Shown here piece after piece: positions 1,557-22,220 of a stretch of 64,000 nucleotides of DNA (the stretch's first letter is position 1; each line of letters begins with the position of its first letter). The notes under the pieces were generated by a model, which was given only the letters and a program-made list of their open reading frames with translations, did not search any database and was not told the DNA's origin. Position numbers and translations under genes: made by a program. The stretch is from the NCBI GenBank assembly GCA_964651435.1, contig CAZYVU010000004.1:49660-113659 (forward strand). Direction: 5' to 3'. The stretch comes from an uncultured Pseudomonadota bacterium (GTDB lineage: Bacteria; Desulfobacterota; Syntrophorhabdia; Syntrophorhabdales; CAYQXL01).

Positions 1557-1715
1557 AAACGTCTACTCTTGAAATGCCGTACTTGTCTTTCATTGCTCTG
1601 GCTACGCCTATAGCCATTTTGCAGGACAGTCATGAAGGGTTCCCGCTGTGAAAAACAACCAGCTCTGCCATGTTGGTCTCCTGAATTATTTGGCATTCTT
1701 GCTATAAGCGGCCAT

Positions 1716-2156: not shown

Positions 2157-2203
2157 TACCGCTTCTCCTTATCTTGCTTTCACAGGGTGCCGCCCGGGAT
2201 TCT

Positions 2204-3067: not shown

Positions 3068-3089
3068 AGTTTCACTTCTTCCTTAAACG

Positions 3090-3105
3090 AGCAATTAGCA
3101 TGCCA
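3090..3105 (-). promoter_or_regulatory. sigma-54 (-24/-12) promoter facing the DUF89 gene
   Basis: The reverse complement reads TGGCAT-GCTAA-TTGCT, with exact GG-N10-GC spacing. The -12 C is at 3091 and the GTG start at 3067, which predicts a leader of about 12 nt. Confidence 0.6.
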
Positions 3106-3211
3106 AAGCTTCTTTGCAGAACGATCACGAGACAACCTCATAACATGCCTGGCTATTCTTTCCCGGAACAACAACGTCGAGGTCCATATGCCCTCGGCTC
3201 TTCCACACATT

Positions 3212-3226
3212 CTTGCACTATGCAAG
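3212..3226. promoter_or_regulatory. inverted repeat CTTGCA-cta-TGCAAG, candidate enhancer (UAS) for the 3090-3105 promoter
   Basis: Perfect 6-bp arms with a 3-bp spacer. It lies about 110-120 bp upstream (minus-strand sense) of the -24 element, just after the activator gene stop. Confidence 0.35.
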
Positions 3227-3227
3227 G

Positions 3228-4625: not shown

Positions 4626-4660
4626 ATTGCAATAGTATGGTACCTATAGTATTGCAATAT
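4624..4660. promoter_or_regulatory. 37-bp near-palindrome containing two ATTGCAAT boxes, candidate activator-binding site (UAS/operator)
   Basis: ATATTGCAATAGTAT-GGTACCT-ATAGTATTGCAATAT, with 15 of 18 symmetric pairs matching. It starts inside the activator start codon and is centred about 100 bp upstream of the 4740-4755 promoter. Confidence 0.45.
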
Positions 4661-4739
4661 GCGGCACAAATGTCAATGTAACCCTGCCCACCGCCGTGCA
4701 ACATATTGGTATCGCTGTTGTTTATATGTCTTTTCTTCA

Positions 4740-4755
4740 CGGCACAAAAGTTGCG
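4740..4755 (+). promoter_or_regulatory. sigma-54 (-24/-12) promoter facing the NifX-like/DUF5320 gene set
   Basis: CGGCAC-AAAAG-TTGCG, with invariant GG and GC at the correct spacing. ATG 4771 is 16 nt after the -12 C, so the leader would be very short. Confidence 0.5.
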
Positions 4756-4770
4756 TTGCATGTCGATATC

Positions 4771-5187
4771 ATGGTGATAGCAATAGCAAACTTCCAGGGT
4801 TCCGTATCGCCGGTCTTTGACGTGTCCGATAAGCTCTCTCTCGTAGAGGTCGTCGGCGGAAAGGAAGTGCAGCGAAAAGACGTGCTATTGATGGAAAGAG
4901 ACCCATTCCTGAGGGCTAAGGAAATGACCGCTATCAGCGTCGAGGTGCTGCTCTGCGGGGCCGTCTCGTACGCCATGGAGACGGCCCTGATTACCGCCGG
5001 TATCAGCGTTGTAGGATTTCTGTGCGGCGGTCTTGAGATGATACTTGGCGCTTTTCTGAAGGAGGGACTGACGGACAGCCGCTTTCTCATGCCCGGATGC
5101 GTCGGGGGCAGGCGACGACGTCGGTTTCGCTGTAGTCACGGAAGACAGGAAGCCCCTATGCGGGGCGGGCCAAACAAAAGGAGGTGA
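4771..5187 (+). CDS. NifB/NifX (dinitrogenase FeMo-cofactor-binding domain)-like protein with Arg-rich tail
   Basis: From the internal ATG the protein reads MVIAIANFQGSVSPVFD..LLCGAVSYAMETALITAGISVVGF..ILGAFLKEGL, the alternating pattern of NifX-like carriers. The tail is GGRRRRRFRC. Confidence 0.6.
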   Translation: MVIAIANFQGSVSPVFDVSDKLSLVEVVGGKEVQRKDVLLMERDPFLRAKEMTAISVEVLLCGAVSYAMETALITAGISVVGFLCGGLEMILGAFLKEGLTDSRFLMPGCVGGRRRRRFRCSHGRQEAPMRGGPNKRR

Positions 5188-5192
5188 GGAAC

Positions 5193-5597
5193 ATGCCAGG
5201 TGGAGATGGAACAGGGCCTCGTGGATTTGGACCCATGACCGGACGGGCGGCAGGATTCTGTACAGGTTTTCCCGTTTCCGGGTATGCAAATTTCGCTCAG
5301 GGAAGAGGGTTTCGTACCTGGGGCGGCCCTGGTGGAGCCGGCGGCCGTGGCTTCAGAAAATGGTTCCGCAGAACCGGACTGACAGGGCGGCAAAGAGCCG
5401 GAGGCTTTATGCCGGCCTGGGACAATCCCTTTACTTACGGTGCGCCCCAGCACACCCCTGCAGCGCCCGCTGTAACAAGGGAACAGGAGTTGGCTGCACT
5501 GAAGGCTCAGGCGGAATACCTGGAAGACGCCCTCGATGGCGTCCGCAGGCAGCTCAAGGACCTGGAGGCCCAGGGAATGGCGCCTCAGGCAGGTTGA
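5193..5597 (+). CDS. DUF5320 family protein
   Basis: MPGGDGTGPRGFGPMTGRAAGFCTG N-terminus, a Gly/Arg-rich middle, and a C-terminal coiled-coil-like REQELAALKAQAEYLEDALDGVRRQLKDLE. AGGAGG lies 7 nt upstream. Confidence 0.7.
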   Translation: MPGGDGTGPRGFGPMTGRAAGFCTGFPVSGYANFAQGRGFRTWGGPGGAGGRGFRKWFRRTGLTGRQRAGGFMPAWDNPFTYGAPQHTPAAPAVTREQELAALKAQAEYLEDALDGVRRQLKDLEAQGMAPQAG

Positions 5598-5606
5598 CGT
5601 CGAATA

Positions 5607-5640
5607 GGGGGTAACGGTTGCGCAGGTAACCGTTACCCCC
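5607..5640 (+). other. perfect 13-bp stem-loop between DUF5320 and the next gene (attenuator, terminator or RNA-stability element)
   Basis: GGGGGTAACGGTT-gcgcaggt-AACCGTTACCCCC. No U-tract follows. Confidence 0.4.
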
Positions 5641-5678
5641 GTGCCCCGGCTTCTGAGACATGATCGAGGAGGATTGTT

Positions 5679-6323
5679 ATGCGTATTGCCGTTACAGCGG
5701 AAGGACCATCTCTTGACGTCGCAATTGATCAGAGGTTTGGGCGATGCCCTTTCTTTCTCATCGTCAATACCGGGGACCTCACTTTTGAGGCTATCCCGAA
5801 CGGAAGCGCTTCTCAGCGGGGAGGTGCGGGTATCCAGGCCGCTCAAATGATCGTCGGCAAAGGGGTGACGCACGTCTTCACAGGTGCCTGCGGGCCCAAT
5901 GCTTACCAGGTCCTCGCGGCGGCCGGGGTCCAGGTTATAGTCGGCTGCACCGGCACGGTACAAGACGTCATCAGACAATGTCGGGAGGGAAGGTTTGTGG
6001 CAGCCGCAGAGCCCAATGTAAGGGACCACTACGGCGTCGGCCAACCCTTGTCGGGTCAGGCAGGCACCCCTATGGGAATCCCCGGCGGGTTTACGACAGG
6101 CATGGGGATGGGCAGAGGAATGGGCCGCGGCAAGGGCAGAGGAATGGGGGTGGTCCGCGGTATCGGTACAGACCCGAACGTTAGTGTCGGGCAAGCACCG
6201 GGAGCGCCGGTCCAGCCCAAGAATGCTCAGCAAGAGCTGGAGTTGCTAAAGAAGCAGATGCAGGACATTAAGAACCGCATCGACGAGCTCGAGCAAACTG
6301 CGCCCGCTAAGAATCGGGGTTGA
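5679..6323 (+). CDS. NifB/NifX-like domain fused to a DUF5320-like Gly/Arg-rich coiled-coil tail
   Basis: N-terminal half MRIAVTAEG..IDQRFGRCPFFLIV..GVTHVFTGACGPNAYQVLAAAGVQV matches NifX-like domains. C-terminal half is GMGMGRGMGRGKGRGMG..QQELELLKKQMQDIKNRIDELE. Confidence 0.7.
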   Translation: MRIAVTAEGPSLDVAIDQRFGRCPFFLIVNTGDLTFEAIPNGSASQRGGAGIQAAQMIVGKGVTHVFTGACGPNAYQVLAAAGVQVIVGCTGTVQDVIRQCREGRFVAAAEPNVRDHYGVGQPLSGQAGTPMGIPGGFTTGMGMGRGMGRGKGRGMGVVRGIGTDPNVSVGQAPGAPVQPKNAQQELELLKKQMQDIKNRIDELEQTAPAKNRG

Positions 6324-6392
6324 GTGATGCGAATTGCCGGCTTTCACATCCCTGAAGGCTTGGGGGCTTAGGCTCCATTTCACCGTGAGGGA

Positions 6393-7415
6393 ATGGAAAT
6401 GGGTATTTTTGCCATAATAGTTGATTATCTCCAGCGAGGCTCCGGCGGTATCCTTGCAACGGTGATACAACGAACCGGTTCGGCACCGCGCGATGTGGGG
6501 GCGAAAATGTTCATCGCTGCCGATGGCACCATGTTTGGGACTGTAGGAGGCGGCCGTCTTGAGTCCGACGCCTACAACAAGGCGCTGGAAATAATGAACA
6601 AAGGGATTACGGCCCTGCTGAGCGTCAATATGGAAGCAATGAATGTAGAGGATGCAGACATGCTCTGCGGCGGCAACGTGTACGTTCTCTTGGAGCCGGT
6701 AACAACAGGCAGTCTTGAGCTCTATAGCGCCATAAGGCATTGCCGGGAAAGAAGGGAGGCAGGTGTGCTCCTGACAAGGTTCGGCGACCATGGGTTTGCC
6801 AAAACCTTGCTGTGCGAAAACGGAACCACGGTTGGTGATTTCCCTGACTACGGGACGGGCAAAACCGACTTCTTTTCCTTCGACTTGCCCGCACTGGCAG
6901 ACTCCGGGGACCTCTTTGTTGAACCAATCCGCGCTATCAGTCCCCTTTACATTTTTGGTGCAGGCCACATATCGCAGCATCTGTCCCGAATGGCCAAAGC
7001 CGTCGGTTTTTACGTGACCGTCATCGACGACAGGAGGGAATTTGCCAATACGGAGAGGTTCAGCGATACCGACAGCATTATCGTGGGGGAATTTGCGGAC
7101 ACCTTTTGTGCTCTCGAGTTCACGGGCCACGAATACGTGGTCATCTGTACGAGAAGTCATGAGTACGATGCCCTTGTCCTGGAAAACGCACTGAAGAAAG
7201 AAACAAAATATATCGGAATGATTGGGAGCGCGCGAAAGGTGCGAATCATCATGGACCGCATGCACGCAAAAGGCTACGACCAGAGGATCACGGCGGGGGT
7301 GCGCGCCCCGATAGGGATCCCCATCAATGCGGAAACCCCCCAGGAAATAGCGGTAAGTATTGTAGCGCAACTGATACAAGTGAAAAACGCGCAGTCTCGC
7401 GGCAGCGGGACTTAA
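6393..7415 (+). CDS. XdhC/CoxI-family cofactor-insertion accessory protein
   Basis: N-terminal XdhC-type segment (ATVIQRTGSAPRDVGAKMFI..GTVGGGRLE) plus a Rossmann-like half (LYIFGAGHISQHLSRMAKAVGFYVTVIDDR..IGMIGS). Confidence 0.8.
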   Translation: MEMGIFAIIVDYLQRGSGGILATVIQRTGSAPRDVGAKMFIAADGTMFGTVGGGRLESDAYNKALEIMNKGITALLSVNMEAMNVEDADMLCGGNVYVLLEPVTTGSLELYSAIRHCRERREAGVLLTRFGDHGFAKTLLCENGTTVGDFPDYGTGKTDFFSFDLPALADSGDLFVEPIRAISPLYIFGAGHISQHLSRMAKAVGFYVTVIDDRREFANTERFSDTDSIIVGEFADTFCALEFTGHEYVVICTRSHEYDALVLENALKKETKYIGMIGSARKVRIIMDRMHAKGYDQRITAGVRAPIGIPINAETPQEIAVSIVAQLIQVKNAQSRGSGT

Positions 7416-7427
7416 AAGAATTTAGTG

Positions 7428-7478
7428 TTAGGGCGTGGGTTTCTCGGTTTCCGTCGGTGCCGAGGCTATGCCCTAACG
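7428..7478 (+). other. nested stem-loop abutting the ribosome-binding site of the radical SAM gene
   Basis: Outer stem GTTAGGGC/GCCCTAAC and inner stem CTCGG/CCGAG. GGGGTGA and ATG 7490 follow directly. Confidence 0.3.
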
Positions 7479-7489
7479 GGGTGATCCTT

Positions 7490-8263
7490 ATGAAGAGAAG
7501 CTTCATGTATATTTACGGGCCCGTTTCATCCTGGAGAATGGGCAGCTCTCTTGGTATCGATCTCTTGTCGCAGCCGGAAAAAATCTGCTCTTTTGACTGC
7601 ACCTATTGCCAGCTCGGAAGGACCTGCAACGGTGAGACAAAGAGGAAGATCTGCGTTCCTGTTGAAGACATGTTGGAGGAAATTCGGTCGTTACCTGAGA
7701 TTTCCGTCGACTGCTTTACCTTTTCCGGAAGAGGAGAACCAACACTGGCAGCAAACCTTGGCGACGCGATCAGGGCCCTCAGGCAGGCCAGGTCCGAGCG
7801 AATCGCCGTCATTACAAACTCATCGCTATTGCAACAGGATGATGTCCAAAATGACCTCTTGCAGGCCGACCTCGTTATTGCCAAACTCGATGCGCCGTCG
7901 CAAGATGTATTTGAGGCCATCAACAGGCCTTGTTCCGGTTGCGACTTCCCGGGCCTTCTTGCGGCCCTTGTAGATTTCAGGGGCCGTTTTTCCGGCACGC
8001 TTGCTTTACAAATCATGTTTACGGCACAGAATAGGGGCTACGCGTCCGAGATAGCGCACATTGCCCGGATCATCGCGCCGGACGAGGTGCACATCAATAC
8101 ACCGCTAAGACCTTGCGCCGTCCACCCCCTCGGAAGAGAGGAGCTCTCTCGTATCACGGCCTTCTTCGCCGGGCTTAATGCCCTTTCCGTCTACGAAAGC
8201 AGCAAGAAATTCGTCGAGCCCATGAGCGACGACGACACACTACGAAGAAGGGGAAAGGTTTAG
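7490..8263 (+). CDS. radical SAM protein (COG0731/Tyw1-like bacterial family, function unknown)
   Basis: YGPVSSWRMGSSLGIDL followed by CSFDCTYCQLG (CxxxCxxC), then GRGEPTL. Start moved to the ATG preceded by GGGGTGA. Confidence 0.75.
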   Translation: MKRSFMYIYGPVSSWRMGSSLGIDLLSQPEKICSFDCTYCQLGRTCNGETKRKICVPVEDMLEEIRSLPEISVDCFTFSGRGEPTLAANLGDAIRALRQARSERIAVITNSSLLQQDDVQNDLLQADLVIAKLDAPSQDVFEAINRPCSGCDFPGLLAALVDFRGRFSGTLALQIMFTAQNRGYASEIAHIARIIAPDEVHINTPLRPCAVHPLGREELSRITAFFAGLNALSVYESSKKFVEPMSDDDTLRRRGKV

Positions 8264-8265
8264 GG

Positions 8266-8976
8266 ATGGAGATTAAGATCCTCTTCGACAACAGAAGGCT
8301 GAATCGCACGTTCATAGCAGGGTGGGGATTGTCATATCTTGTTGACGACCGGATCCTCTTTGACACAGGCGAGAGCGCAGGACCCCTTTTCTACAACATG
8401 GACCGCATGGGCGTCAGTATCGAGCAGATCCAGTCAGTCGTCATTTCCCATGAACATTTTGACCATACCGGCGGCCTCTGGAACATCCTTAAGGAAAGGC
8501 CGGGCATCAATGTCTATGTATGTCCGGATTTCAGCGCGCCATTCAAGGAAGAGGCGGCATCGTATACCTGTAACGTAATAGAGGCTCACCATATGACCCC
8601 GATTGCCGAGCGCATACAGGCAACGGGTCAGTTACGCAGCGGCACCCATTCGGACGGTATCGCAGAGCAGTCCTTGGTACTTTGTACGGAGCTGGGCCTG
8701 ACAATGCTGACGGGCTGCGCACATGTCGGCATAGTAGACATGGTGGAGCAGGTAACAATGGTGACGGGAAAGAAATCCTATCTTGTCATGGGCGGTTTTC
8801 ACCTCCTCGGCGAACCCGAGACCATGGTACAGGCTGTCGGCAGAAGACTGCACGAGCTTGGCGTACAATACATCGGGCCGGCCCACTGCACCGGCACCGA
8901 ACCAATGCGAATCCTAAAGGGGTCGTACGGACAACGTTTCATCGATGTCCTCGTAGGCGAGACAATAAAGGTTTGA
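8266..8976 (+). CDS. MBL-fold metallo-hydrolase superfamily protein (COG1237-like)
   Basis: ISHEHFDHTGG metal motif and later GCAHVG and GGFHL motifs. Starts 2 nt after the radical SAM stop. Confidence 0.7.
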   Translation: MEIKILFDNRRLNRTFIAGWGLSYLVDDRILFDTGESAGPLFYNMDRMGVSIEQIQSVVISHEHFDHTGGLWNILKERPGINVYVCPDFSAPFKEEAASYTCNVIEAHHMTPIAERIQATGQLRSGTHSDGIAEQSLVLCTELGLTMLTGCAHVGIVDMVEQVTMVTGKKSYLVMGGFHLLGEPETMVQAVGRRLHELGVQYIGPAHCTGTEPMRILKGSYGQRFIDVLVGETIKV

Positions 8977-9028
8977 TGCCGCTAAAAGTGTTCTTTGCAT
9001 CGTTGCGTGGTCCAGGCTAAGGGGTGCC

Positions 9029-9778
9029 ATGGCTGTTGGGACATTACCGCTGATTATCGGGGCCACCCTGGTGGGGAGTGTGGCCACCCTGGTGGGGGCA
9101 TCTTTCGTGCTCCTCTGCTCCAAGGGGAGAAGCCGGATCTTTATTCCTTTTCTTGTAAGTTATGCCACCGGAACGCTTCTCGGGGCAGCCTTTTTGGGCA
9201 TGATACCGAAGGCACTGAAAGTTTCCTCAACAACCACAGTCTCCGCTACCATACTGGCCGGCACTCTCCTCTTCTTCCTGCTTGAGAAGTCCGTCATCTG
9301 GCGCCACTGCCACGAAGACAACTGCGACATTCACACGAGGGCAGGCACTCTCATTATTTTTGGCGATGCTTTTCACAACTTTGTTGACGGCATCGTTATC
9401 GCCGTGGCCTTTATGGCCGACAGGTCATTTGGGGCCGCGACCACCGTAGCCGTTCTCGCCCATGAAATTCCGCAGGAAATGGGAGATTTTGCGATCCTCA
9501 TTGAAAGCGGCTACCCTCGGGCGAAGGCATTTCTTTACAACTTCCTATCCCAGGCAACCTCTCTGCTGGGTGCGGTCGCCGCCTACTTCTATCTCCAGGC
9601 CGCCGAGGCCGCTATTCCATACGTCCTCTCCATGTCAGCGGCAAGCTTCATCTACATCGCCCTGGCGGACCTCATCCCCGGGCTCCATCGAACAATAGAA
9701 CTGAAAAACAGTTTTATTCAGTTAGTGCTGCTCCTGTCGGGAATCGGGACGATAGCCCTTTTCGTTGCCTCTCCTTAA
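9029..9778 (+). CDS. ZIP-family divalent metal permease (ZupT-like)
   Basis: Multi-pass membrane protein with the signature HEIPQEMGDFAIL and HNFVDG. Confidence 0.8.
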   Translation: MAVGTLPLIIGATLVGSVATLVGASFVLLCSKGRSRIFIPFLVSYATGTLLGAAFLGMIPKALKVSSTTTVSATILAGTLLFFLLEKSVIWRHCHEDNCDIHTRAGTLIIFGDAFHNFVDGIVIAVAFMADRSFGAATTVAVLAHEIPQEMGDFAILIESGYPRAKAFLYNFLSQATSLLGAVAAYFYLQAAEAAIPYVLSMSAASFIYIALADLIPGLHRTIELKNSFIQLVLLLSGIGTIALFVASP

Positions 9779-9830
9779 CGGGCCGTTCCGCGTACGGCTC
9801 GGTCTGTCGATGCAGGGCGAAGAGGGGCCA

Positions 9831-10526
9831 TTACGGTTCTTTGAGCCATGAATAGTAACTCCCCAACAGATAAAGGGCCGCCAGGGGGTTGTGTCCCGTG
9901 ACGCGGTCCTTGACGGCAAGCACCGTGGAGGGGGCCTTCGCATACTTGAAGAAGAGCGAGTCGTGGCCCACGCAGAGACCGAGAAGGACGTTGAAATCCG
10001 TCTCCTCTTCGTTGGCGATCATAGCCTGAAAAATAGGGTTGCACATGGACTCGTGCCCCCCCCTGAACACCTTTTCGTCATCGGTCAGCCCTATCTCTTC
10101 CTTTGCCACGCATCCGGCCTTGCACATCACAGAAACGACGTCAAAACCCTTCTGCTCAAAAAAGCCGCAGGTCAACCGTGCCTCCGCGACAAGGCCGGCG
10201 CAGAAGATAAGCCCGAGGCGCTCGTAACCCATCCGTCGGGCAAACTCGCATATCTCCAGAATGCGCGGCTTTGTCGGATGGATGACGTATGGTCTCCGCT
10301 CCCTGCCGGCGTAGCACTCCCCTTCCTGAATGGAGGCCTGCCGGGCAAACTCGCCGTTTTCCAAGGATCTGTACTCCTGCCGGGCCTTCTCAAGCAGGCC
10401 TCTGAAGGACGCCGTGGGGCATCCCGCCGCAGGAGAGCCTCCGGGCTTCATGCAGGCACGCTCGCGAAACTCGACGCTGCATTCTGCGCACTGAGCCTTG
10501 ATCTTCTGTGATTTTCGGGCCGTCAT
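9831..10526 (-). CDS. DUF1847 family Cys-rich (metal-binding) protein
   Basis: N-terminal CAECS..C..C and the conserved LLGLCVGHDSLFFKY block. Confidence 0.6.
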   Translation of the reverse strand: MTARKSQKIKAQCAECSVEFRERACMKPGGSPAAGCPTASFRGLLEKARQEYRSLENGEFARQASIQEGECYAGRERRPYVIHPTKPRILEICEFARRMGYERLGLIFCAGLVAEARLTCGFFEQKGFDVVSVMCKAGCVAKEEIGLTDDEKVFRGGHESMCNPIFQAMIANEEETDFNVLLGLCVGHDSLFFKYAKAPSTVLAVKDRVTGHNPLAALYLLGSYYSWLKEP

Positions 10527-10876
10527 TGCGTGACCTCTTTCTCCTTTACAACCTCTGTCTTGAGAAACGTGAGCAGGTCCTGCAGCACAGGCAGGACGTC
10601 GCTTCTGAACCGCCCTGCGACAAGGACCTTCATGATGTCATCGCCAACGTTGAGCTCCCCCTCGTTAAGCCAAACCCGCACCTCGACTACTCCTTCTCTT
10701 GCTTTCGCCGCCGTTATTGCCTCGGCAAGCTTGTCGCGATCGTACGAAAGCAACATCCCCCGAACCGCTGAGCCCGTTTTTGCCGTGGCCCTCACAACCC
10801 CGTTATGAACGAGGATCATGCCCAGCTCCCTGGGATCAGCGCTCTTCTTCACCTCTCCAATCCATTCATCAAACAT
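10523..10876 (-). CDS. MoaE-like (molybdopterin synthase large-subunit fold) protein
   Basis: By-eye alignment to MoaE: HNGVVR vs TGKVR, NEGELNVGDDIMKVLVAGRFRSD vs IGELWPGDEIVFVGVTSAHRSS, TFLKTEVVKEKE vs DYLKTRAPFWKRE. ATGA overlap with the DUF1847 gene. Confidence 0.5.
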   Translation of the reverse strand: MFDEWIGEVKKSADPRELGMILVHNGVVRATAKTGSAVRGMLLSYDRDKLAEAITAAKAREGVVEVRVWLNEGELNVGDDIMKVLVAGRFRSDVLPVLQDLLTFLKTEVVKEKEVTQ

Positions 10877-10902: not shown

Positions 10903-12258
10903 TTAGAGGAGGGCCATCAAGTCTCCGATATCCTCCACGCGCTCCAGCGACAGCACCCTTTCGACGATCAAGGGTGCTTTGGCTCTTGCGTCCGCCAGTC
11001 CGCTGTAATCCACACATTTGAAGAACTTCTGCACGCACTCCTCGACGGTCAACGGGTTTTCCGGGCTACCCCTCATGTGCTCAACGGTTTTCTCAATCGC
11101 CGCGCCCTTATAGCGCACGACGAGGCGCGCCCTGTTCATGTCCCGCTCCGGAATCGCCGGATCGGCCACCACGCGCACCTTTCCGATGAGACCGTCGCCG
11201 GGCGCCTGCCTTACCCGGTCCTCTTCGAAGTCCTCGAGGCGCACATCGCCCCGCTGCAGAGCCGCAGCAACCGTGTAAGGTATGCTGAACTGGGCATCCA
11301 CCTGGGGGTTTTCCCGAACGCTAAAAGGCCTTCCCACCATGTTTTCCGCCATGGAGGAAACGTAGGCCGCCACCTCCTCGATCTCCGACGGGTCCGGCCC
11401 GTGCTCCCGAAGGATGGTCAGTGCTGCGTCTATTGAGGCATGCGTCATCCTGCACGAAGGGTAAGGCTTCATGCTGAGGCCCATGCCCTCGTAACGGGTG
11501 CCCAGGTCTTCTGCCGCCCGTCGGGCGTCGAAGTCGCCCTGCTCGTAGAGGTTGAAAAATCCGTATTGACCTTCGAAGGTGTCACGTGCGCCCGTAATGC
11601 CGGCACGGGCCAGGTAGGCCGACACCACTCCGGCCTTGGCCGAGAAGGCAGGCTGCATACGCTTGACCAATCCGCCGTCAACCAGACACTGGGCGTTGCC
11701 TGCCGTCTGGCTGTAAACAATGCCCAGGGCCTGCCGTATGCCTCCGCCGCCGAGCCTCATCATCTTTGCCGCGGCAACTGCGGCGCCGAAACTCCCACAG
11801 GTAGCCGTCCTGATCCAGGACAGCGGCCGCCTCGTACCGAGGCCCAACCTGCAGACACTGTCGACGCCCAGGACAAGGGCACAGATGAGCTCCCTTCCGC
11901 TGGCCGGCCCAGCCGCCTCGGCTACGGCCAGCGCCGCCGGCAGCACCGACACATGGGCATGCAATGCGCTCTCGTCGAGCGTGTCGTCAAAGTCGAGGGC
12001 ATGCATCATCGTGCTGTTTGCAAAGGCCGCCCACGGCGACGGCACCCTGCCTCCCCCCGCCAGCACCGTCGATTCAGGGCTGCCGCCCCACTCTTGTACG
12101 AGACGCACCACCTCGCGGCAGCCCGGCGCATGTGCGCCCGCAAGGGCCACGCCCAGCGAGTCAAGAACGAACAGTTTGGCCCTCTCCACCACCGATGCGG
12201 GAAGGTCCTCATACTTGACGCGGGCCGCATGGTCCGCCATAGCCTCCAAGACATTCAT
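10903..12258 (-). CDS. MmgE/PrpD family protein (2-methylcitrate dehydratase-like)
   Basis: N-terminus ..YEDLPASVVERAKLFVLDSLGVALAG and the overall PrpD-type pattern. 451 aa. Confidence 0.85.
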   Translation of the reverse strand: MNVLEAMADHAARVKYEDLPASVVERAKLFVLDSLGVALAGAHAPGCREVVRLVQEWGGSPESTVLAGGGRVPSPWAAFANSTMMHALDFDDTLDESALHAHVSVLPAALAVAEAAGPASGRELICALVLGVDSVCRLGLGTRRPLSWIRTATCGSFGAAVAAAKMMRLGGGGIRQALGIVYSQTAGNAQCLVDGGLVKRMQPAFSAKAGVVSAYLARAGITGARDTFEGQYGFFNLYEQGDFDARRAAEDLGTRYEGMGLSMKPYPSCRMTHASIDAALTILREHGPDPSEIEEVAAYVSSMAENMVGRPFSVRENPQVDAQFSIPYTVAAALQRGDVRLEDFEEDRVRQAPGDGLIGKVRVVADPAIPERDMNRARLVVRYKGAAIEKTVEHMRGSPENPLTVEECVQKFFKCVDYSGLADARAKAPLIVERVLSLERVEDIGDLMALL

Positions 12259-12297
12259 ACCGCCTCCCTATGCTCCCGCCGGCGCACCGCTATCTGC

Positions 12298-13320
12298 CTA
12301 CCGGGGAATCTTCTTTCCCTTCTCTTTGTAATACTTTATCGCTCCGGGATGAAAGGGGAAAGGTGATCCATCGACGGCAATGTCAAGAGTGAGGTCGTTT
12401 GCAACTTTATGCATCGATACGAGCTCCGGCTTGTGATCAAAGAGGGTCTTCAAGACGTCGTAGACAAACTTGTCGTCCATCTTCTCGTGAGTAACGAGGA
12501 AGTTGCCCGCACAAACGGTAGCCACGCCATAGTCCACCCCCTTATACGTGTTTGGTGGACAGGTGGTTTTGAAGTATATGGGACCGTACTTGGCCACCAT
12601 TTTTGGAAGCACCTCAGCAGAGCTCAGCATTCTGATTTTCATGCCAGGGCTTGCCGCCACATCCATGACGGCCGCCGTAGGTATTCCGCCAACCCAAAAG
12701 AAGGCGTCGATCTTCCCGTCTTTGAGGGCCCCCGCCGATTCTGCCACGCTGAGACGGTCCCTTTTTACGTCCTTCTGTATATCCAGACCGTAGGCCTCAA
12801 GAATTCTGGTGGCCACAATCTCCGTTGCACTTCCCGGCGCACCGACGGAAACCCGCTTGCCCTTGAGGTCCTTAACCGACTGTATGCCGTTGCCGTCCAC
12901 CGTGACGATATGGGTAACGGAGGAATAAAGCCCGGCGATATTCCGCATGGGCACCTTCGCCTTGAACACCCCCTTGCCCATGTAAGCATCATAACCCACG
13001 TCACCAAGCATGATGGCCAGATCGGCCTTCCCGGCCCCAAGGAGCTTGGCATTGTCTACGGCCGCCGCCGTCACCTCTGCCGTCGCTTCAACTCCCGGAA
13101 TGTGCTTGGAAATGACGGCTGCGATAGCCCCGCTATAGGGATACCAAACGCCGCCTGTACCCCCGGCTGCGATGGAAATTCTCCGCACTTTGTCCGCTGA
13201 GATTGCCCCGGGGACTAAGGCCACGCAAACGATAACAAGGAGCGTTACAAAGCCCACAACCGCACAGGTCAAGCCCTTTCCGTGTTCGGACCCGCCCTTT
13301 GATGACGATTTTCTGTTCAT
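12298..13320 (-). CDS. TAXI-family TRAP-type solute-binding protein (no membrane partner nearby)
   Basis: Signal-anchor N-terminus, then AAGGTGGVWYPYSGAIAAVISKHIPGVEATAEVTAAAVDNAKLL. Start set at ATG 13320, preceded by GGAGG. Confidence 0.85.
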   Translation of the reverse strand: MNRKSSSKGGSEHGKGLTCAVVGFVTLLVIVCVALVPGAISADKVRRISIAAGGTGGVWYPYSGAIAAVISKHIPGVEATAEVTAAAVDNAKLLGAGKADLAIMLGDVGYDAYMGKGVFKAKVPMRNIAGLYSSVTHIVTVDGNGIQSVKDLKGKRVSVGAPGSATEIVATRILEAYGLDIQKDVKRDRLSVAESAGALKDGKIDAFFWVGGIPTAAVMDVAASPGMKIRMLSSAEVLPKMVAKYGPIYFKTTCPPNTYKGVDYGVATVCAGNFLVTHEKMDDKFVYDVLKTLFDHKPELVSMHKVANDLTLDIAVDGSPFPFHPGAIKYYKEKGKKIPR

Positions 13321-16204: not shown

Positions 16205-16501
16205 ATGTCAAGACCAAAGAAATGCAGATGTGTCGATTGTAGCCCTCACGTATTTTATTTTAAACCCAAGGGGATTCCCTTGGTCAATCTCTTTGAGATT
16301 TCCCTTGAGATAGACGAGCTTGAGGCATTGAGGCTGGCCGACTACGAGGGCCTGTACCACGAAGAGGCATCGAAGAGAATGAACATATCAAGGGCTACTT
16401 TTGGCCGCGTTTTGTGCAGCGCCCGCCATAAGGTCGTGGAGGCCATACTGGAGGGCAAGGCCTTGAAGATTGAAAACCAACAAGCTGGAGGTCACATATG
16501 A
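16205..16501 (+). CDS. DUF134 (UPF0251) family putative DNA-binding protein
   Basis: MSRPKKCRCV..FKPKGIPL N-terminus and a sigma-70 region-4-like HTH (EEASKRMNISRATFGRVL). Confidence 0.8.
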   Translation: MSRPKKCRCVDCSPHVFYFKPKGIPLVNLFEISLEIDELEALRLADYEGLYHEEASKRMNISRATFGRVLCSARHKVVEAILEGKALKIENQQAGGHI

Positions 16502-16872
16502 AGGTCTGTTTTGCAGTACAGAAGGATGAGGGGCTGGAAAGCACCGTCTACGGTCATTTCGGTTCAGCTCCGGCTTTTATCGTCGTTGATACGGAAGCGG
16601 AGACGGCGGCTACGGTAGCCAACAGGGACCGGAACCACGCACACGGGGCCTGCAACCCCATGGCCGCCATCGGCGGGCAGCGGGTCGATGCCGTGGTTGT
16701 CGGCGGCATCGGGGCCGGTGCGCTCATGAGGCTCAACGCAGAGGGCATCAAGGTCTTCCGCGCTGCAGGGCCGTCGGTCCGGGCAAACCTATCCTTGATC
16801 AAAGATAATATGCTCCCCGAAATGACGGCGCAGAATACCTGCGCTGGCCACCAGGGCGGGTGCGGCCACTAA
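16498..16872 (+). CDS. NifB/NifX-like (FeMo-cofactor-binding domain) protein
   Basis: MKVCFAV..VYGHFGSAPAFIVVD..VDAVVVGGIGAGALMRLNAEGIKVF. ATGA overlap with the DUF134 gene. Confidence 0.8.
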   Translation: MKVCFAVQKDEGLESTVYGHFGSAPAFIVVDTEAETAATVANRDRNHAHGACNPMAAIGGQRVDAVVVGGIGAGALMRLNAEGIKVFRAAGPSVRANLSLIKDNMLPEMTAQNTCAGHQGGCGH

Positions 16873-16890
16873 CGCGAGAAGAGGTGACAT

Positions 16891-17124
16891 ATGCCGATCT
16901 ACGAATACCGTTGCGCCGATTGCGGCCAGATAAGTGAATTCATCGTCATTGGCAATGAGGACGGCTTGGCCTGCAAGGCCTGCAGCAGCCCCAAACTGGA
17001 GAAGCTCATGTCGGCTCACAACACCGTAGGTGCGACCGGAAGCAACACGTTTGCGGGGCCCTCAGGCGGCTGCTGCGGAAACCCCGGATCCTGCGGCACC
17101 CCCGGTAGTTGCTGTTCCGGTTAA
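16891..17124 (+). CDS. FmdB-family zinc-ribbon protein with Cys/Gly-rich C-terminal tail
   Basis: MPIYEYRCADCG..CKACSS (CxxC-N-CxxC ribbon). The tail is GGCCGNPGSCGTPGSCCSG. Confidence 0.8.
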   Translation: MPIYEYRCADCGQISEFIVIGNEDGLACKACSSPKLEKLMSAHNTVGATGSNTFAGPSGGCCGNPGSCGTPGSCCSG

Positions 17125-17149: not shown

Positions 17150-18313
17150 CTATTTTTTGCTATAGAGCGGCGACATGCTCCGCAGGAATTCGACGCTTCT
17201 CTTCAGCACATCGACGGAACGGTCAACGTCCTCCAGGGTGTTTTCCATGCCGAAAGAGAAGATCAGCGTACCCTGGGCAAGGGCATAGTCGCGGCCGGTA
17301 GCGATGAGGACATGAGACGCCCTGAGCGAGCCGGCCGCGCAGGCCGAGCGGGTAGAAACGGCAACGCCCTCTTCGTCGAGCATCATCGTCATCGATTCGC
17401 CTTCCACATAGGCGACAGAAAAAGACACGAGGCCGGGCAGACATTTCTCCTGATGTCCGTTCAGATAAATTTCGTCTATGTCCGCCAACCGGCCGACAAG
17501 GGCCCTGCGTAGCTCCCAGACGTGGGCCGTGCGCTCCGGCATCTCCGCTATGGCCAGTTCGGCCGCCTTGCCCATGCCCACAATGCCGAGCATGTTGGGC
17601 GTACCCGCCCTCCTGCCGCCCTCCTGGGTGCCCCCGTCGATGAGGGGGAAGATAGCCGTTTTGGGCCTCACATAAAGCGCCCCTACGCCGGAAGGGCCAT
17701 AGAACTGGTTGGCCGCCATGCTCAGCAGATCGACGTTGAGCTCCTTTACATCCATAGGCACGTTCCCACAGGAAGCCACTGCGTCGGTGTGAAAAACGAC
17801 GTCCTTCTCTTTTGCAATCTTTCCGATCTCGGCAACGGGTTCCAGCGTTCCGATCTCGTTATTGGCATGCATGATGGAAATTAGGATCGTATCGCTCCGT
17901 ATCATCCTCTTTACTTCTTCCGGATCCACCATTCCATATTCGTCAACGCCCACCGAGGTGACCTCAAAGCCCATCCGCATGAGCACCCGAAGGGGCCGGG
18001 AAACGGACTGATGCTCGATGTTGGAGGTTATGATGTGCTTGCCCTTTTTCGCCTTGGCAAAAGCGACCCCCTTTATCGCCTGGTTCGTCGACTCTGTGCC
18101 CCCAGAGGTAAAGACAATTTCGCCGGGCCCGGCACCGATAAGCCGTGCGACCTGAGAGCGGGCACTCTCAAGCATCTCCGATGCCTGATCGCCGACCCGG
18201 TGCTGACCCATGGGGTTGCCGAAACCGTCCTTATCAATGTAGTCAACAATCGCCTTCTTAACCTCGGGGTGCAACGGAGTAGCCGAAACGTGGTCCAGGT
18301 AGGTTAATTTCAT
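17150..18313 (-). CDS. IscS/NifS-family cysteine desulfurase homologue lacking the PLP-binding lysine
   Basis: Class V aminotransferase fold throughout (ITSNIEHQSV, FHTDAV, active-site loop STRSACAAGS). The canonical S-x-HK-x-YGP motif reads SMAANQFYGPSG (DNA: GCC AAC CAG TTC TAT GGC). Confidence 0.85.
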   Translation of the reverse strand: MKLTYLDHVSATPLHPEVKKAIVDYIDKDGFGNPMGQHRVGDQASEMLESARSQVARLIGAGPGEIVFTSGGTESTNQAIKGVAFAKAKKGKHIITSNIEHQSVSRPLRVLMRMGFEVTSVGVDEYGMVDPEEVKRMIRSDTILISIMHANNEIGTLEPVAEIGKIAKEKDVVFHTDAVASCGNVPMDVKELNVDLLSMAANQFYGPSGVGALYVRPKTAIFPLIDGGTQEGGRRAGTPNMLGIVGMGKAAELAIAEMPERTAHVWELRRALVGRLADIDEIYLNGHQEKCLPGLVSFSVAYVEGESMTMMLDEEGVAVSTRSACAAGSLRASHVLIATGRDYALAQGTLIFSFGMENTLEDVDRSVDVLKRSVEFLRSMSPLYSKK

Positions 18314-18340: not shown

Positions 18341-18850
18341 TTACTTATGAACTGCAACGGGTTTCCCGCACTTCTTGCAGACAGGAGCCCTTTGCGGAAT
18401 CTCCGTGTCACAGTAGGGGCAATAGCAGCCTCCCTCACGCTCGCCGATAAACTCTACGGGCTCGCGCGTGCGGCCCTTGCCCTCCCTTCGCTCGTAAAAA
18501 TCCATGATCGCTTTGTGGAGGGCATCGGCGCCCAGGTTTGAACAGTGGAGCTTATTCTTCGGCAGGCCCCCCAGCGCCTCGGCCACGGCCTGGTTGGTGA
18601 TCTTCATGGCCTCCTCAAGCGTCTTGCCCTTGGCCATCTCCGTCACCATACTCGATACGGCTATCGCCGCGCCGCAGCCGAAGGTATTGAACTTGATGTC
18701 CTCTATGCGGTCACCCTTGACCTTGATGGTGATCGACATCATGTCGCCGCATATGGGGTTTCCCACCTCACCCACGCCGTCGGCATTCTCGATTTTCCCG
18801 ATATTTTTTGGATTCTTAAAGTGTTCGAGGGCAATTTCGGAATACGCCAT
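18341..18850 (-). CDS. IscU-type Fe-S scaffold with C-terminal zinc-ribbon extension
   Basis: From MAYSEIALEHFKNPKN: GNPICGDMM, FGCGAAIA and LHCSNL scaffold motifs. Extra tail CYCPYCDTEIPQRAPVCKKCG. Confidence 0.85.
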   Translation of the reverse strand: MAYSEIALEHFKNPKNIGKIENADGVGEVGNPICGDMMSITIKVKGDRIEDIKFNTFGCGAAIAVSSMVTEMAKGKTLEEAMKITNQAVAEALGGLPKNKLHCSNLGADALHKAIMDFYERREGKGRTREPVEFIGEREGGCYCPYCDTEIPQRAPVCKKCGKPVAVHK

Positions 18851-19032: not shown

Positions 19033-20583
19033 ATGCCCCAGGGGGTGAACATGGAACAGAGGAACGCTATTGACTGGACTACGCTATGGAAAAAAGACGA
19101 CTGGATGTCCGTATGGATCGGCTTTCTCATTCTCATCATCTTCATGGCCGGGGTTAGCTTCAAGCTGCCGGGATGGCGCTGGATGACCGACGGGGCCTTT
19201 TCGGAAAAGTCCCAGGAATGGGTGCCGAAGGCAGAAAAGCTCGCCAAGGATGCGGAGGGAAAAGGCGAGCCTGCCGTCTCGACAGCGGCTGCGGCCCTGA
19301 AGACGGCCATAGACGGGAAGGACAGAAAGGCCATCGGAGAAGCGGGAGGCAAGCTGGAGAAGGCCGCCAAGGGGGCAAAGGACAAGGACATCATCAAGGC
19401 CGGTGAGAAGCTGGGGAAAGACGCCAAGGGGATGGCCGGCAACACGGCGGGCAAGGTCTTCTCAGCCGATAACCTGCTCAGGGCGCTCTGGCTCCTCATA
19501 GGGCTCTGGATCCTCGGCGGTATCGGAATGGCCGTTATGGGCATGTCCTTCGGCAAGTTCACCGTCGGTTTTCCCATCATCTTCATCCTCTCGGCCCTCG
19601 CCTTTTTTGTGGCCGGCAACAGCACCGTCAACTACTATGGGCTGGAGGTCGTCTTCTGGGCCCTTCTCTTCGGCCTCCTCATAAGTAACACCGTCGGCGT
19701 TCCCGATTGGCTCAAGACCGCCATCAAGACGGAGTTCTTTATTAAGATCGGCCTCGTGCTCCTGGGTGCTGAAGTGCTCTTCACGACCATCATCCAGGTG
19801 GGCGCCTACGGAATGATACAGTCGATCATAGTCATCTTCGCCGTCTTTTATCTCTGCTACTGGGTTGCCAAGAAGATGGGGCTCGACGATGAGTTCGCAA
19901 GCATTCTCGGCACCGCCGTTTCTATCTGCGGCGTTTCAGCCGCCATCGCGGCCGGCGGAGCTGTCAAGGGAGACCAAAAGAAGGTGAGCCATACCATCTC
20001 CCTCGTGCTTCTCTGTGCTATCCCCATGCTTATCTTTCAGCCGCTCATAGCCAAGTGGACAGGCATGTCCCCTGTCATCGCCGGCGCATGGATCGGCGGG
20101 ACCATCGACACGACGGGCGCCGTTGTGGCCGCCGGCCAGATAGCCGGCCCTCAGGCGGAAAAGGTTGCCATCGTGGTCAAGATGGCCCAGAATGTGCTCA
20201 TCGGATTTGCGGCCTTCTTTCTTGCCATCTGGTTCAGCTTCAAAGGGTTGGCTGCAGGCCAAAAACCAAGCTTGATTGACATCTGGTTCCGGTTTCCCAA
20301 GTTCGTCGTCGGCTTCATCATTGCCTCCATCGTCTTCTCCTTTTTCATGCCGACGGCTACGGCAAAGGGCATCACGAGCATAACGGCTCCGCTTCGGGGC
20401 TGGTGGTTTACCTTGGCGTTCCTCTGTATCGGACTCGAAACGAAGTTCAGCGAACTGGTCAAGATGGGCGGGGGGAAACCTGCAGGGGCCTTTCTCATTG
20501 CCCAGGCCTTCAACATCGTCTGGACCTTGCTCTTGGCCTGGCTTATTTTCGGGGGAGTGCTGTTCCCCGTACCGACATTCTGA
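19033..20583 (+). CDS. YeiH/UPF0324 family membrane transporter (putative sulfate-exporter family) with a repeat-rich N-terminal loop
   Basis: Core ..ILGTAVSICGVSAAIAAGGAVKGDQKKVSHTISLVLL.. matches UPF0324. An alternative start at ATG 19051 is preceded by GGGGG. Confidence 0.75.
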   Translation: MPQGVNMEQRNAIDWTTLWKKDDWMSVWIGFLILIIFMAGVSFKLPGWRWMTDGAFSEKSQEWVPKAEKLAKDAEGKGEPAVSTAAAALKTAIDGKDRKAIGEAGGKLEKAAKGAKDKDIIKAGEKLGKDAKGMAGNTAGKVFSADNLLRALWLLIGLWILGGIGMAVMGMSFGKFTVGFPIIFILSALAFFVAGNSTVNYYGLEVVFWALLFGLLISNTVGVPDWLKTAIKTEFFIKIGLVLLGAEVLFTTIIQVGAYGMIQSIIVIFAVFYLCYWVAKKMGLDDEFASILGTAVSICGVSAAIAAGGAVKGDQKKVSHTISLVLLCAIPMLIFQPLIAKWTGMSPVIAGAWIGGTIDTTGAVVAAGQIAGPQAEKVAIVVKMAQNVLIGFAAFFLAIWFSFKGLAAGQKPSLIDIWFRFPKFVVGFIIASIVFSFFMPTATAKGITSITAPLRGWWFTLAFLCIGLETKFSELVKMGGGKPAGAFLIAQAFNIVWTLLLAWLIFGGVLFPVPTF

Positions 20584-20632: not shown

Positions 20633-21715
20633 TTAGAACCCTAATACTTTGTGGCACCTGCGACAGCTTTCCGGTGGAGCCGGAAGCGGACGCACCCCTG
20701 ATACCTTCAGCTCCATAAGGGCATCAATGGTATCGCGCCGACATCTTCCCCTCTCTTCAAAGCTGCGCCGAAAGGCAACATATTCCGGCCTTCCCCAGAT
20801 CGCATCCCACTCTTCCCGAAAAAGATTGCCGAAGCTGACCTTCTCCTCCGGAAATGTGTGGCCGCAAAAGATGCGGGAAAAGGGCGAATGCACCGGCGGC
20901 TGCAGGTAGACACAAGGCGACACCTCGCCCTGGACGGAGACGTAGACGTTTTCAAGGGGGTTCTCACTGCACACGGCAACGTCCGTCGGGGCGAGGGCGG
21001 GAAGGGTCAGCCTTACCCGCAACCTGCGTGCCCTGCCTGCGGCCTCAGCCATCACCTCGCCGTAGGGGTTCACGTCACCGCAGGAAAAGACCCTTTGTTC
21101 ATCCTGCCAGGCCGTTGCCACGTGGGCATTGGTGATGACGATCACCTCTCCGATACCGAGGCCGTATGCCACGTCGACGACCTGCGGCAGCTCGGCCATG
21201 TTTTCTTTCAGGGCGAGATAGACTATGTGGACCTTCGGCCCCCTGGACCTGCGGGACCGCACTATACCCACGAAGGCCCTGATGCTCTCCTGCAGCCGGT
21301 CAAAATCAGAGCGGACACGAATGCGGTTGTGGGTTTGGGCGGTGCAGCCGGCGAGAGAAAACCCGATGAAGTCAATGCCCCCGTCTATCAATGCCCTGGA
21401 CCGCTCCTCGCTCAGCCCATAGCCGCTTGTGACAAAGCCGACCTCAGGCCCCTGAGCCTTGACCGAACGGACAAAATCGATGAGCCGGGGGTGCATAAGC
21501 GATTCACCCCACCCTTCAAGGACGACGCTTTTCACCGACCTCAGCCAGGGGGAGATCCGATCGAAGTCCCGAAGGGCCATATCCCGTCGCAGCCATTGCG
21601 CATCGGCCTCCTTGACGCACATGCGGCAGGCAAGAGGGCATCGGGTCGTTACTTCTATCTGCCACGCGTTGAACGTCGGCCCGATCCGGTTGCTGCGCCG
21701 CGAAAAAATACCCAT
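20633..21715 (-). CDS. radical SAM protein with SPASM/twitch-like Cys-rich C-terminus
   Basis: EVTTRCPLACRMC (CxxxCxxC) and C-terminal cysteines (SPCVY..FCGH..GRCRR..ESCRRCHKVLGF). Start set at MGIFSRR, 7 nt after the upstream stop. Confidence 0.75.
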   Translation of the reverse strand: MGIFSRRSNRIGPTFNAWQIEVTTRCPLACRMCVKEADAQWLRRDMALRDFDRISPWLRSVKSVVLEGWGESLMHPRLIDFVRSVKAQGPEVGFVTSGYGLSEERSRALIDGGIDFIGFSLAGCTAQTHNRIRVRSDFDRLQESIRAFVGIVRSRRSRGPKVHIVYLALKENMAELPQVVDVAYGLGIGEVIVITNAHVATAWQDEQRVFSCGDVNPYGEVMAEAAGRARRLRVRLTLPALAPTDVAVCSENPLENVYVSVQGEVSPCVYLQPPVHSPFSRIFCGHTFPEEKVSFGNLFREEWDAIWGRPEYVAFRRSFEERGRCRRDTIDALMELKVSGVRPLPAPPESCRRCHKVLGF

Positions 21716-21722
21716 CGTCCGC

Positions 21723-22220
21723 CTAAAGCCTCGACAGGAGATCGGCCGTTGCCCACGGACCGTCCGTGCGCCAGCGACCGCACTCATATGTGAGGGAGGC
21801 TTCGCCGCCCCACTTCACCTTGAAACATCGCATACCCTCGTTGACATTGAGCCCCAAATGAATGTATTCCTTGCCCCCCTCCTGAGCCAACTGGACCATG
21901 CGGAGAAATAGGATGTCCGAGGCATGGGGCTCATAATGGGCCTTGGAATGACATCCCGCCACGTAGGTGGCGAATCTTTCCTTTCCCAGATCAACGACAT
22001 AGAAGGCCGTGAGCGCCCCCGTTCCGTCCCTGCCGTCGATGACGACGGCCCTTCTTGTCGTTTCGCGCCTCAGCCTCCCCTTCACAACAAATCTTTCGAG
22101 CTTAAGGACGTAGTACCGGTCACGTCCGTACTCGCCACCGGATATGCCCGTCATGAGGGCGACTACGTGCTCAGGAACATAAGCGTTTTCGGTAATGAAA
22201 CGGTCCTCCTCGGTCAGCAT
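21723..22220 (-). CDS. small GNAT/FemAB-like (Acetyltransf_6-like) protein, function unknown
   Basis: The C-terminal ..YIHLGLNVNEGMRCFKVKWGG resembles the ..L..FK.KWG motif of FemAB/BioF2-like acyltransferase folds. The assignment is weak. Confidence 0.35.
   Translation of the reverse strand: MLTEEDRFITENAYVPEHVVALMTGISGGEYGRDRYYVLKLERFVVKGRLRRETTRRAVVIDGRDGTGALTAFYVVDLGKERFATYVAGCHSKAHYEPHASDILFLRMVQLAQEGGKEYIHLGLNVNEGMRCFKVKWGGEASLTYECGRWRTDGPWATADLLSRL

Follow-up and report, generated by a model that had tools for sequence, protein, structure and literature searches.

A conserved bacterial IscS-like protein, encoded beside its own IscU, in which the Schiff-base lysine of cysteine desulfurases is replaced

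The DNA stretch analysed here, referred to throughout as the window, comprises 64,000 nucleotides (64 kb) of contig CAZYVU010000004.1 from an uncultured bacterium of the Desulfobacterota type. It contains an iscS/nifS-like gene whose product lacks the lysine that forms the Schiff base with pyridoxal phosphate (PLP) in cysteine desulfurases, and an iscU/nifU-type scaffold gene directly upstream of it. The iscS-like gene had been singled out in an earlier sequence-only description of the DNA (the original prediction), in which the strand had to be corrected: the gene lies on the minus strand. The features of the gene pair are as follows.

17150..18313, minus strand: iscS/nifS-like gene, an open reading frame (ORF) of 387 amino acids without the PLP Schiff-base lysine
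17162..17185, minus strand: C-terminal helix LRSMSPLY, IscU-docking region
17261..17263, minus strand: I351, in the column of E. coli R354
17327..17356, minus strand: Cys loop STRSACAAGS, residues 320-329, with C325 (equivalent to E. coli C328) at 17339-17341
17687-17722, minus strand: SMAANQFYGPSG, residues 198-209, the motif holding N202-Q203
17705..17710, minus strand: codons AAC CAG for N202-Q203, in the columns of E. coli H205-K206
17774..17791, minus strand: HTDAVA, H175 to A180, with the aspartate of E. coli D180 conserved as D177 and Q183 changed to A180
18281..18283, minus strand: A11, in the column of E. coli T12
18341..18850, minus strand: iscU/nifU-type scaffold gene, 169 amino acids, Pfam NifU_N match at 3.6e-48, directly upstream of the iscS-like gene
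18365..18427, minus strand: predicted C-terminal cysteine ribbon of IscU, C142-x-C144-P-Y-C147 ... C158-x2-C161
18881..18908, minus strand: sigma-70-like promoter match TTGAAA-16-TATATT, upstream of iscU

The class-V aminotransferase fold and full-length homology to type-I cysteine desulfurases were identified by several methods. Residues 4-365 of the 387-residue protein matched Pfam Aminotran_5 (PF00266) with E = 2.9e-77, and the closest entries found by phmmer in the Protein Data Bank (PDB) were all type-I cysteine desulfurases, including 9wep (5e-108), Archaeoglobus fulgidus IscS (4eb5, 2e-105) and E. coli IscS (1p3w, 8e-97). Together with the MAFFT alignment described below, these matches bear out the alignment to IscS along its length that had been made by eye. 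An AlphaFold2 model of the protein had a mean predicted local distance difference test (pLDDT) score of 90.4, and Foldseek placed it at template modelling (TM) scores of 0.90-0.94 to NFS1, IscS and A. fulgidus IscS. Confidence was low at residues 226-236 and in the block holding the Cys loop, as is expected of a mobile loop. The protein scored below every NCBIfam equivalog cutoff for NifS or IscS, with 440.3 bits against a cutoff of 530.75 for TIGR03402 (NifS), 395.4 against 548 for NF010611, 387.4 against 643.2 for TIGR02006 and 301.5 against 304 for NF002806. The best PDB sequence match belongs to a series of entries (9wep, 9wer, 9wew, 9wf8, 9wfb, 9wfe and 9wfy) that are point variants of one 406-residue cysteine desulfurase; several of these carry substitutions at the columns in which the query diverges, such as Q to P following TDA and R to V within the VRFSFG motif.

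In the phmmer alignments, Asn202 and Gln203 fall on the His-Lys pair of solved desulfurases, with tens of ungapped residues on either side of the motif. The same column placement, N202-Q203 on H205-K206, was obtained by MAFFT alignment with E. coli IscS, for which the reference sequence was identical to PDB 1p3w at 404/404 positions, and the assignment to the His-Lys columns appears secure on these alignments. In none of these alignments does another lysine take the Schiff-base position. No lysine lies within 12 residues of position 203, the nearest being K190 and K218, which led to rejection of a displaced or compensating lysine; moreover, no column gains a conserved lysine in 45 lysine-less as compared with 170 canonical relatives aligned.

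Around this column the active site is partly kept and partly lost. The residues retained are, in E. coli numbering, G74, T76, H104, N155, D180, T243 and C328, so numbered in the query that the cofactor pocket consists of T73, H101, N152, D177 and T238. The residues lost are Q183 (A180 in the query), S203 (A200), H205 (N202), K206 (Q203) and R354 (I351). In the active-site set H104/D180/Q183/R354, H101 and D177 are therefore kept while the glutamine and the arginine are replaced, and the catalytic cysteine of the flexible loop is present as C325. The original prediction had quoted SMAANQFYGPSG, HTDAVA and STRSACAAGS, and had claimed the reading AAC CAG in place of CAC AAG, the loss of the PLP-contacting glutamine and the retention of the active-site cysteine loop. 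All of these were found in the sequence and the alignment; the accompanying changes R354 to I351, S203 to A200 and T12 to A11 had been overlooked.

The relatives compared had two sources, namely the 150 nearest representatives of 50%-identity clusters and 80 genome loci among the matches listed. Columns at least 90% conserved in the canonical proteins and retained in less than 30% of the lysine-less ones were sought, and only T12, Q183, H205, K206 and R354 showed this pattern, barring an alignment artefact at the start methionine. These five columns read T-Q-H-K-R in E. coli IscS, A-A-N-Q-I in the query and A-A-N-D-L in A. fulgidus IscS. Lysine occupies the K206 column in 100% of the 170 canonical relatives, and the Q183 column holds glutamine in 100% of the canonical and 0% of the lysine-less proteins. 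The R354 column holds arginine in 100% of the canonical proteins, V, L or I in the lysine-less ones and L in A. fulgidus, and the T12 column holds threonine in 92% of the canonical proteins and mostly alanine in the lysine-less ones. No newly conserved residue was found in the lysine-less set. Overall column conservation was 0.62 for the lysine-less and 0.60 for the canonical proteins, and the phosphate loop, the H104/N155/D180 regions, the Cys loop and the IscU-contact helices are as conserved in the former as in true enzymes. C325 is invariant in the alignment of the query's clade (alignment A1), and all lysine-less relatives with sequence at the C328 column retain the cysteine. L377 and R378 are likewise invariant in A1 and the string LRSMSPL is the same in the query and A. 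fulgidus IscS; in E. coli IscS, the C-terminal helix 379-391 contacts IscU (PMC2854127).

K206 of E. coli IscS is the lysine of the internal aldimine (PMC2854127). Desulfurase activity was abolished by each of the substitutions K206A, Q183E, H104Q, D180G and C328S, and the K206A protein still retained some PLP (PMC9978102). Since K206 and Q183 are both replaced in the query and the guanidinium group of R354 is gone, the protein should not act as a canonical desulfurase. Judged by its sequence, the gene product is homologous to the type-I cysteine desulfurases but is no longer equipped for PLP-lysine chemistry.

Two exceptional sets of relatives were observed in these comparisons. One cluster representative at 50% identity that groups within the query's clade (P0123) still has His-Lys, although its Q183 column has already become A and its R354 column L; such a protein could be a step towards loss of the lysine, or one that has reverted. 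In metagenome-assembled genomes (MAGs) of Methylomirabilota/Rokubacteria, three proteins (L050 3886-5145, L079 5402-6646 and P0193) have Met or Leu at the lysine column and keep Q183, H205 and R354, with a canonical copy about 5-6 kb away on the same contig in L050 and L079. Here the lysine appears to have been lost separately and in a different manner.

The lysine is absent in all 120 of the nearest homologues (68-100% identity), of which 119 read NQ and one reads HQ. These best 120 homologues stem from many independent contigs and samples, and chance or error is thereby set aside as the source of the substitution. They are intact ORFs of 387-393 amino acids, and the identical protein was found on an independent Logan contig. 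Compared with the 81%-identical relative, nonsynonymous divergence (pN) was 0.12 and synonymous divergence (pS) was 0.75, the latter being saturated; this indicates strong purifying selection. Since each of the two codons is a single base away from its counterpart in CAC AAG, an error in sequencing or assembly, or a pseudogene in decay, could be imagined. This explanation was rejected, and its probability is negligible, on the strength of the homologues, the independent contig, the intact frames under selection and the four further active-site columns changed in concert.

To the original prediction it must be added that the gene is no peculiarity of a single genome: it belongs to a conserved clade, with similar lysine-less proteins in several bacterial phyla. 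The close relatives carry the source names Syntrophales, Syntrophorhabdaceae, Desulfobacterota and Deltaproteobacteria and are labelled "cysteine desulfurase" or "cysteine desulfurase family protein". When the 150 nearest representatives of 50%-identity clusters were compared, 24 proved to be without the lysine. Among the matches listed, lysine-less proteins occur in GTDB contigs of Syntrophobacterales, Desulfatiglans, other Thermodesulfobacteriota and Dehalococcoidales, and also in a Scalindua MAG, Nitrospirota/Thermodesulfovibrionales, Caldimicrobium and Bathyarchaeota; an Odinarchaeum protein lies within another lysine-less cluster. In a neighbour-joining (NJ) tree built from all columns, the lysine-less proteins form one block. 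Upon removal of the five signature columns they fall into three groups joined by backbone branches of near-zero length, one formed by the query's clade, one of mixed bacterial membership and one archaeal, with A. fulgidus in it. Of 100 bootstrap trees, 41 reproduced the query's clade of 22 members without change, and the best overlap averaged 0.95. A single origin of all lysine-less proteins was rejected as a conclusion because the block splits once the signature columns are removed, and no claim is made for the number of origins.

The IscU encoded upstream starts with ATG at 18850, preceded by the ribosome-binding site AAGGAGG, and a 169-residue gene is likewise called in relatives. It passes NCBIfam TIGR03419 (NifU_clost) with 191.2 against a cutoff of 187.9, and all of its cluster ligands are kept (C34, D36, C59, H102 and C103). 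The single sigma-70-like promoter match was obtained where about one is expected by chance; its one suggestive feature is its location immediately ahead of the ribosome-binding site. The arrangement of iscU and the iscS-like gene is that of a two-gene operon, predicted to be co-transcribed. Among the matches listed, an IscU gene lies within about 1 kb of the lysine-less gene at 15 of 18 loci, and the iscU-iscS pair is the sole part of the neighbourhood conserved across relatives. A wider conserved neighbourhood was considered and rejected, as just the divergent YeiH-like transporter recurs, and in the closest relative only.

The C-terminal cysteine ribbon of this IscU scored 23 bits against Pfam Zn_Ribbon_1, under the cutoff of 25. 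The tail is conserved in Desulfobacterota relatives (L002-L009) and at one Dehalococcoidales locus (L012), and it is absent from the aligned IscU genes that stand beside canonical desulfurases (L016, L021 and L031). It could bind Zn or Fe.

The other genes recorded in the window are listed below.

570-10876: molybdenum/tungsten (Mo/W) cofactor-related cluster with moaA, moaE, xdhC, two DUF5320 genes, a radical SAM gene, DUF1847, a ZIP transporter and a sigma-54 activator
1716-2156, minus strand: divergent NifU_N/IscU-like gene, 146 amino acids, with Cys/Asp/Cys/His-Cys ligand motifs and an N-terminal extension
16205-17124, plus strand: three small genes convergent with iscS, encoding a DUF134 protein, a NifX/NifB-like Nitro_FeMo-Co domain and an FmdB-type zinc ribbon
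19033-20583, plus strand: YeiH/PF03601 family membrane protein, divergent neighbour of iscU
20633-21787, minus strand: radical SAM/SPASM protein, nearest in NCBIfam to putative maturases of metalloenzymes and of tungsten-cofactor oxidoreductases, with every score under the cutoff

The window has the makeup of ordinary chromosome and contains polA, dnaB, ribosomal protein and glycolysis genes in addition to the molybdopterin-related cluster. The high GC content of the 570-10876 region gives rise to long ORFs on the wrong strand, and one of the DUF5320 proteins encoded there also has a NifX-like Nitro_FeMo-Co domain. The second IscU-like gene, at 1716-2156, is flanked by moaA and an ARMT1-like gene and has no desulfurase gene alongside; its NCBIfam score was far too low, at 99 against a cutoff of 188. 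The FmdB-type zinc ribbon protein convergent with iscS has a cysteine-rich C-terminal tail, GGCCGNPGSCGTPGSCCSG. In the 81%-identical relative (L085/L086, 7687-9219), too, iscU has the YeiH/PF03601 gene as its divergent neighbour; the copy in the window has a Lys/Ala-rich N-terminal extension of about 170 residues.

No other Aminotran_5 gene is present in the 64-kb window, and a second desulfurase was rejected when a phmmer search with the query against six-frame ORFs of at least 80 amino acids returned only the query gene. The window likewise contains no genes for accessory factors of the iron-sulfur cluster (ISC) system, with none of hscBA, fdx, iscA or iscR near the pair. A further contig, L089, is collinear with the left end of the window and represents the same or a near-identical contig. 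At 12062-13395 of L089, about 1.4-2.8 kb to the left of where the window begins, a Sulf_transp (YeeE/YedE-like) transporter gene is followed by a TusA-like gene, and the two may constitute a thiosulfate/sulfur uptake route. In L002, a relative with a 2.9 Mb genome, a canonical desulfurase gene was observed at about 11400-12520 on the minus strand, convergent with the adjoining NQ gene. It carries the motifs HTDAVQ, AAHKLYGP, GSACTS and VRMSLG and is broken into at least three reading-frame segments, as a pseudogene or through assembly indel errors.

What is observed at the locus is the loss of catalytic residues, purifying selection, the operon arrangement with IscU and a residue signature common to A. 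fulgidus IscS. According to PMC7585200, the A. fulgidus protein has no desulfurase activity because the lysine is replaced by Asp, and its loop cysteine ligates a [2Fe-2S] cluster on IscU (PMC7585200, PMC13066941 and PMC8918507). PMC8918507 further describes a crystal with non-covalent pyridoxamine phosphate (PMP), PLP modelled in the IscU complex, and sulfide as the proposed sulfur source. The original prediction had described this protein as lacking both the lysine and PLP while still partnering IscU. The lysine loss and the partnering hold; the statement on PLP is an oversimplification, as PMP is bound non-covalently according to PMC8918507.

We consider that the query is most likely a non-catalytic partner of IscU of the A. 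fulgidus type, with sulfur supplied by sulfide or another donor, and we regard this explanation as probable. The five-column signature, the retained Cys loop and docking helices, and the intact IscU all point in this direction, consistent with the non-catalytic scaffold or alternative sulfur route that had been suggested at the outset. We infer that the protein, inactive as a desulfurase, would fold and dimerise like IscS and would form a complex with IscU, docking by the conserved helix-8 region and the C-terminal helix. C325 of the mobile loop would then act during the formation of the [2Fe-2S] cluster on IscU, as fourth ligand of the cluster or as a handling thiol, a role modelled on the (IscS-IscU)2 complex of A. 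fulgidus. The sulfur would not be derived from cysteine breakdown at this protein and would be provided by free sulfide, which is plentiful in the habitats of these anaerobes, or by another donor. Since the cofactor pocket is retained, a B6 vitamer could be held there non-covalently, PMP or PLP acting as a structural cofactor. Sulfide feeding Fe-S assembly directly in anaerobes has a precedent in the SMS system (PMC12192291), and a further one has been reported for E. coli without iscS under H2S.

The chief rival is a persulfide relay, in which the C325 loop takes sulfane sulfur from another donor, either a canonical desulfurase paralogue or a thiosulfate/polysulfide route, and hands it to IscU. 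The strict conservation of the Cys loop would suit such a function, as would the canonical desulfurase gene (with HK, Q and R) convergent with and next to the NQ gene in L002 and the Sulf_transp (YeeE-like) and TusA-like genes just left of the window. However, the adjoining canonical gene is found in one relative only, where it is split across frames, and the other relatives among the matches listed are without a canonical paralogue inside a 10 kb distance. The A. fulgidus precedent favours a ligand over a relay role, and on balance we regard the relay as unlikely. The canonical gene of L002 could also suggest a regulatory or decoy subunit that sequesters IscU or heterodimerises with a canonical desulfurase and so tunes sulfur flux, and a protein that retains the dimer fold and the IscU-docking surface while catalysis is lost would fit this description. 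A tight two-gene operon with its own IscU, conserved over many genomes, suggests a self-contained module instead, and there is no evidence of a partner desulfurase at most loci, which makes this role quite improbable.

Similarly improbable is a protein that is still an enzyme, with non-covalently bound PLP or PMP driving slow desulfuration or a different reaction on another substrate. In its favour, the pocket residues T73, H101, N152, D177 and T238 are conserved as in canonical enzymes, PMP is bound by A. fulgidus IscS, some PLP is kept by E. coli K206A, and N202-Q203 is fixed within the clade. Against it, the residues of catalysis and substrate positioning K206, Q183 and R354 are lost together, and E. 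coli K206A and Q183E are each inactive (PMC9978102). The lysine-less proteins also gain no conserved residue able to form a new active site, and over the wider lysine-less set the lysine column has no fixed residue, with Q, T, S, R, D, L and others occurring there. Both altered B6 chemistry and a decoy or heterodimer role are less likely than the persulfide relay.

Several observations weigh against a non-catalytic IscU partner and temper our preference for it. For the bacterial members, inactivity is predicted on the basis of the residues they carry. The cofactor pocket is largely kept and K206A IscS still binds PLP, so some cofactor-dependent chemistry is possible. N202 and Q203 are nearly invariant within the query's own clade and could have a function beyond not being lysine. 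The canonical HK-type gene adjoining the NQ gene in L002 means that a relay or heterodimer model fits that relative as well as the scaffold model does. Finally, the absence of a canonical desulfurase is established only for the 64-kb window and about 9.5 kb to its left (L089).

A wider reading is offered tentatively. The gene pair could represent a cysteine-independent, sulfide-fed ISC-type Fe-S module of one old lineage common to both domains, widespread in anaerobic bacteria (Desulfobacterota, Dehalococcoidia, Nitrospirota and anammox Planctomycetota) and also in archaea, in which the ribbon tail of IscU would supply iron or electrons. We consider this possible but doubtful as a whole.

The inactive IscS of A. 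fulgidus has hitherto been treated as an archaeal curiosity, and the same residue package is now seen in a well-conserved bacterial clade. If the proteins are indeed non-catalytic, many "cysteine desulfurase" annotations in the genomes of anaerobes would be wrong, and surveys that count ISC, NIF and minimal ISC systems as cysteine-using would overestimate them. The bacterial proteins could then be used to study cluster building by IscS and IscU without desulfurase chemistry, with the conserved IscU tail as an extra handle.

Among known systems, the canonical type-I desulfurases (E. coli IscS 1p3w, NifS, human NFS1 and 9wep) share with the query whole-length homology at 41-50% identity, the domain layout, the mobile Cys loop, the IscU-docking surfaces and the pocket T76/H104/N155/D180/T243. 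The query differs from them in the absence of K206, Q183, H205, S203 and R354 and in scoring below the NCBIfam equivalog cutoffs for NifS and IscS. The minimal ISC system (MIS), composed of MisS and MisU, was defined by Garcia et al. 2022 and was compared here by description, as given in PMC12192291, PMC12442378 and PMC13066941. Like MIS, the query pair is a two-gene module of a desulfurase-like and an IscU-like protein in an anaerobic host, with no chaperone, ferredoxin, A-type carrier or IscR genes nearby. The neighbours are instead the DUF134, NifX-like and FmdB ribbon genes, the YeiH-like transporter and the radical SAM gene, so that the gene content is that of MIS. In contrast, MisS is described in these papers as a working cysteine desulfurase, and the query is without the residues for that activity. 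Methanosarcina acetivorans IscS1, also compared by description, is reported to be without the catalytic lysine and is proposed to have an A. fulgidus-like role (PMC7585200), but it is archaeal.

The closest counterpart is A. fulgidus IscS2 (AF_0564; PDB 4hvk, 4eb5 and 4eb7, with the D199K variant 4r5f), whose sequence was taken from the PDB alignment. It has the type-I desulfurase fold with 44% identity to the query and a TM score of about 0.9, and in both proteins the loss of the Schiff-base lysine is accompanied by Q183 to A, H205 to N, R354 to a hydrophobic residue and T12 to A. The Cys loop and the LRSMSPL C-terminal helix are common to both. A. fulgidus IscS2 was crystallised with its own IscU (4eb5); for the query the pairing is predicted from the operon, the IscU ligands and the docking helices. 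The lysine column holds Asp in A. fulgidus and Gln in the query, which has also lost S203 (A200). The query's host is a Desulfobacterota-type bacterium, its gene order, iscU then iscS, is reversed relative to A. fulgidus, and its IscU bears the C-terminal cysteine ribbon. The A. fulgidus group and the query's clade are separate in the NJ tree without the five signature columns, in which the backbone is unresolved. In the literature searched, lysine-less IscS or MisS proteins were described only from A. fulgidus and M. acetivorans (IscS1) and none was bacterial, although an earlier mention is possible. The glutamine at the lysine column and the reversed gene order set the query apart from A. 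fulgidus, and the IscU tail is not described in the same literature. An inactive, lysine-less IscS bound to IscU is a kind of protein already known from A. fulgidus, and the locus described here provides a new, bacterial member of it.

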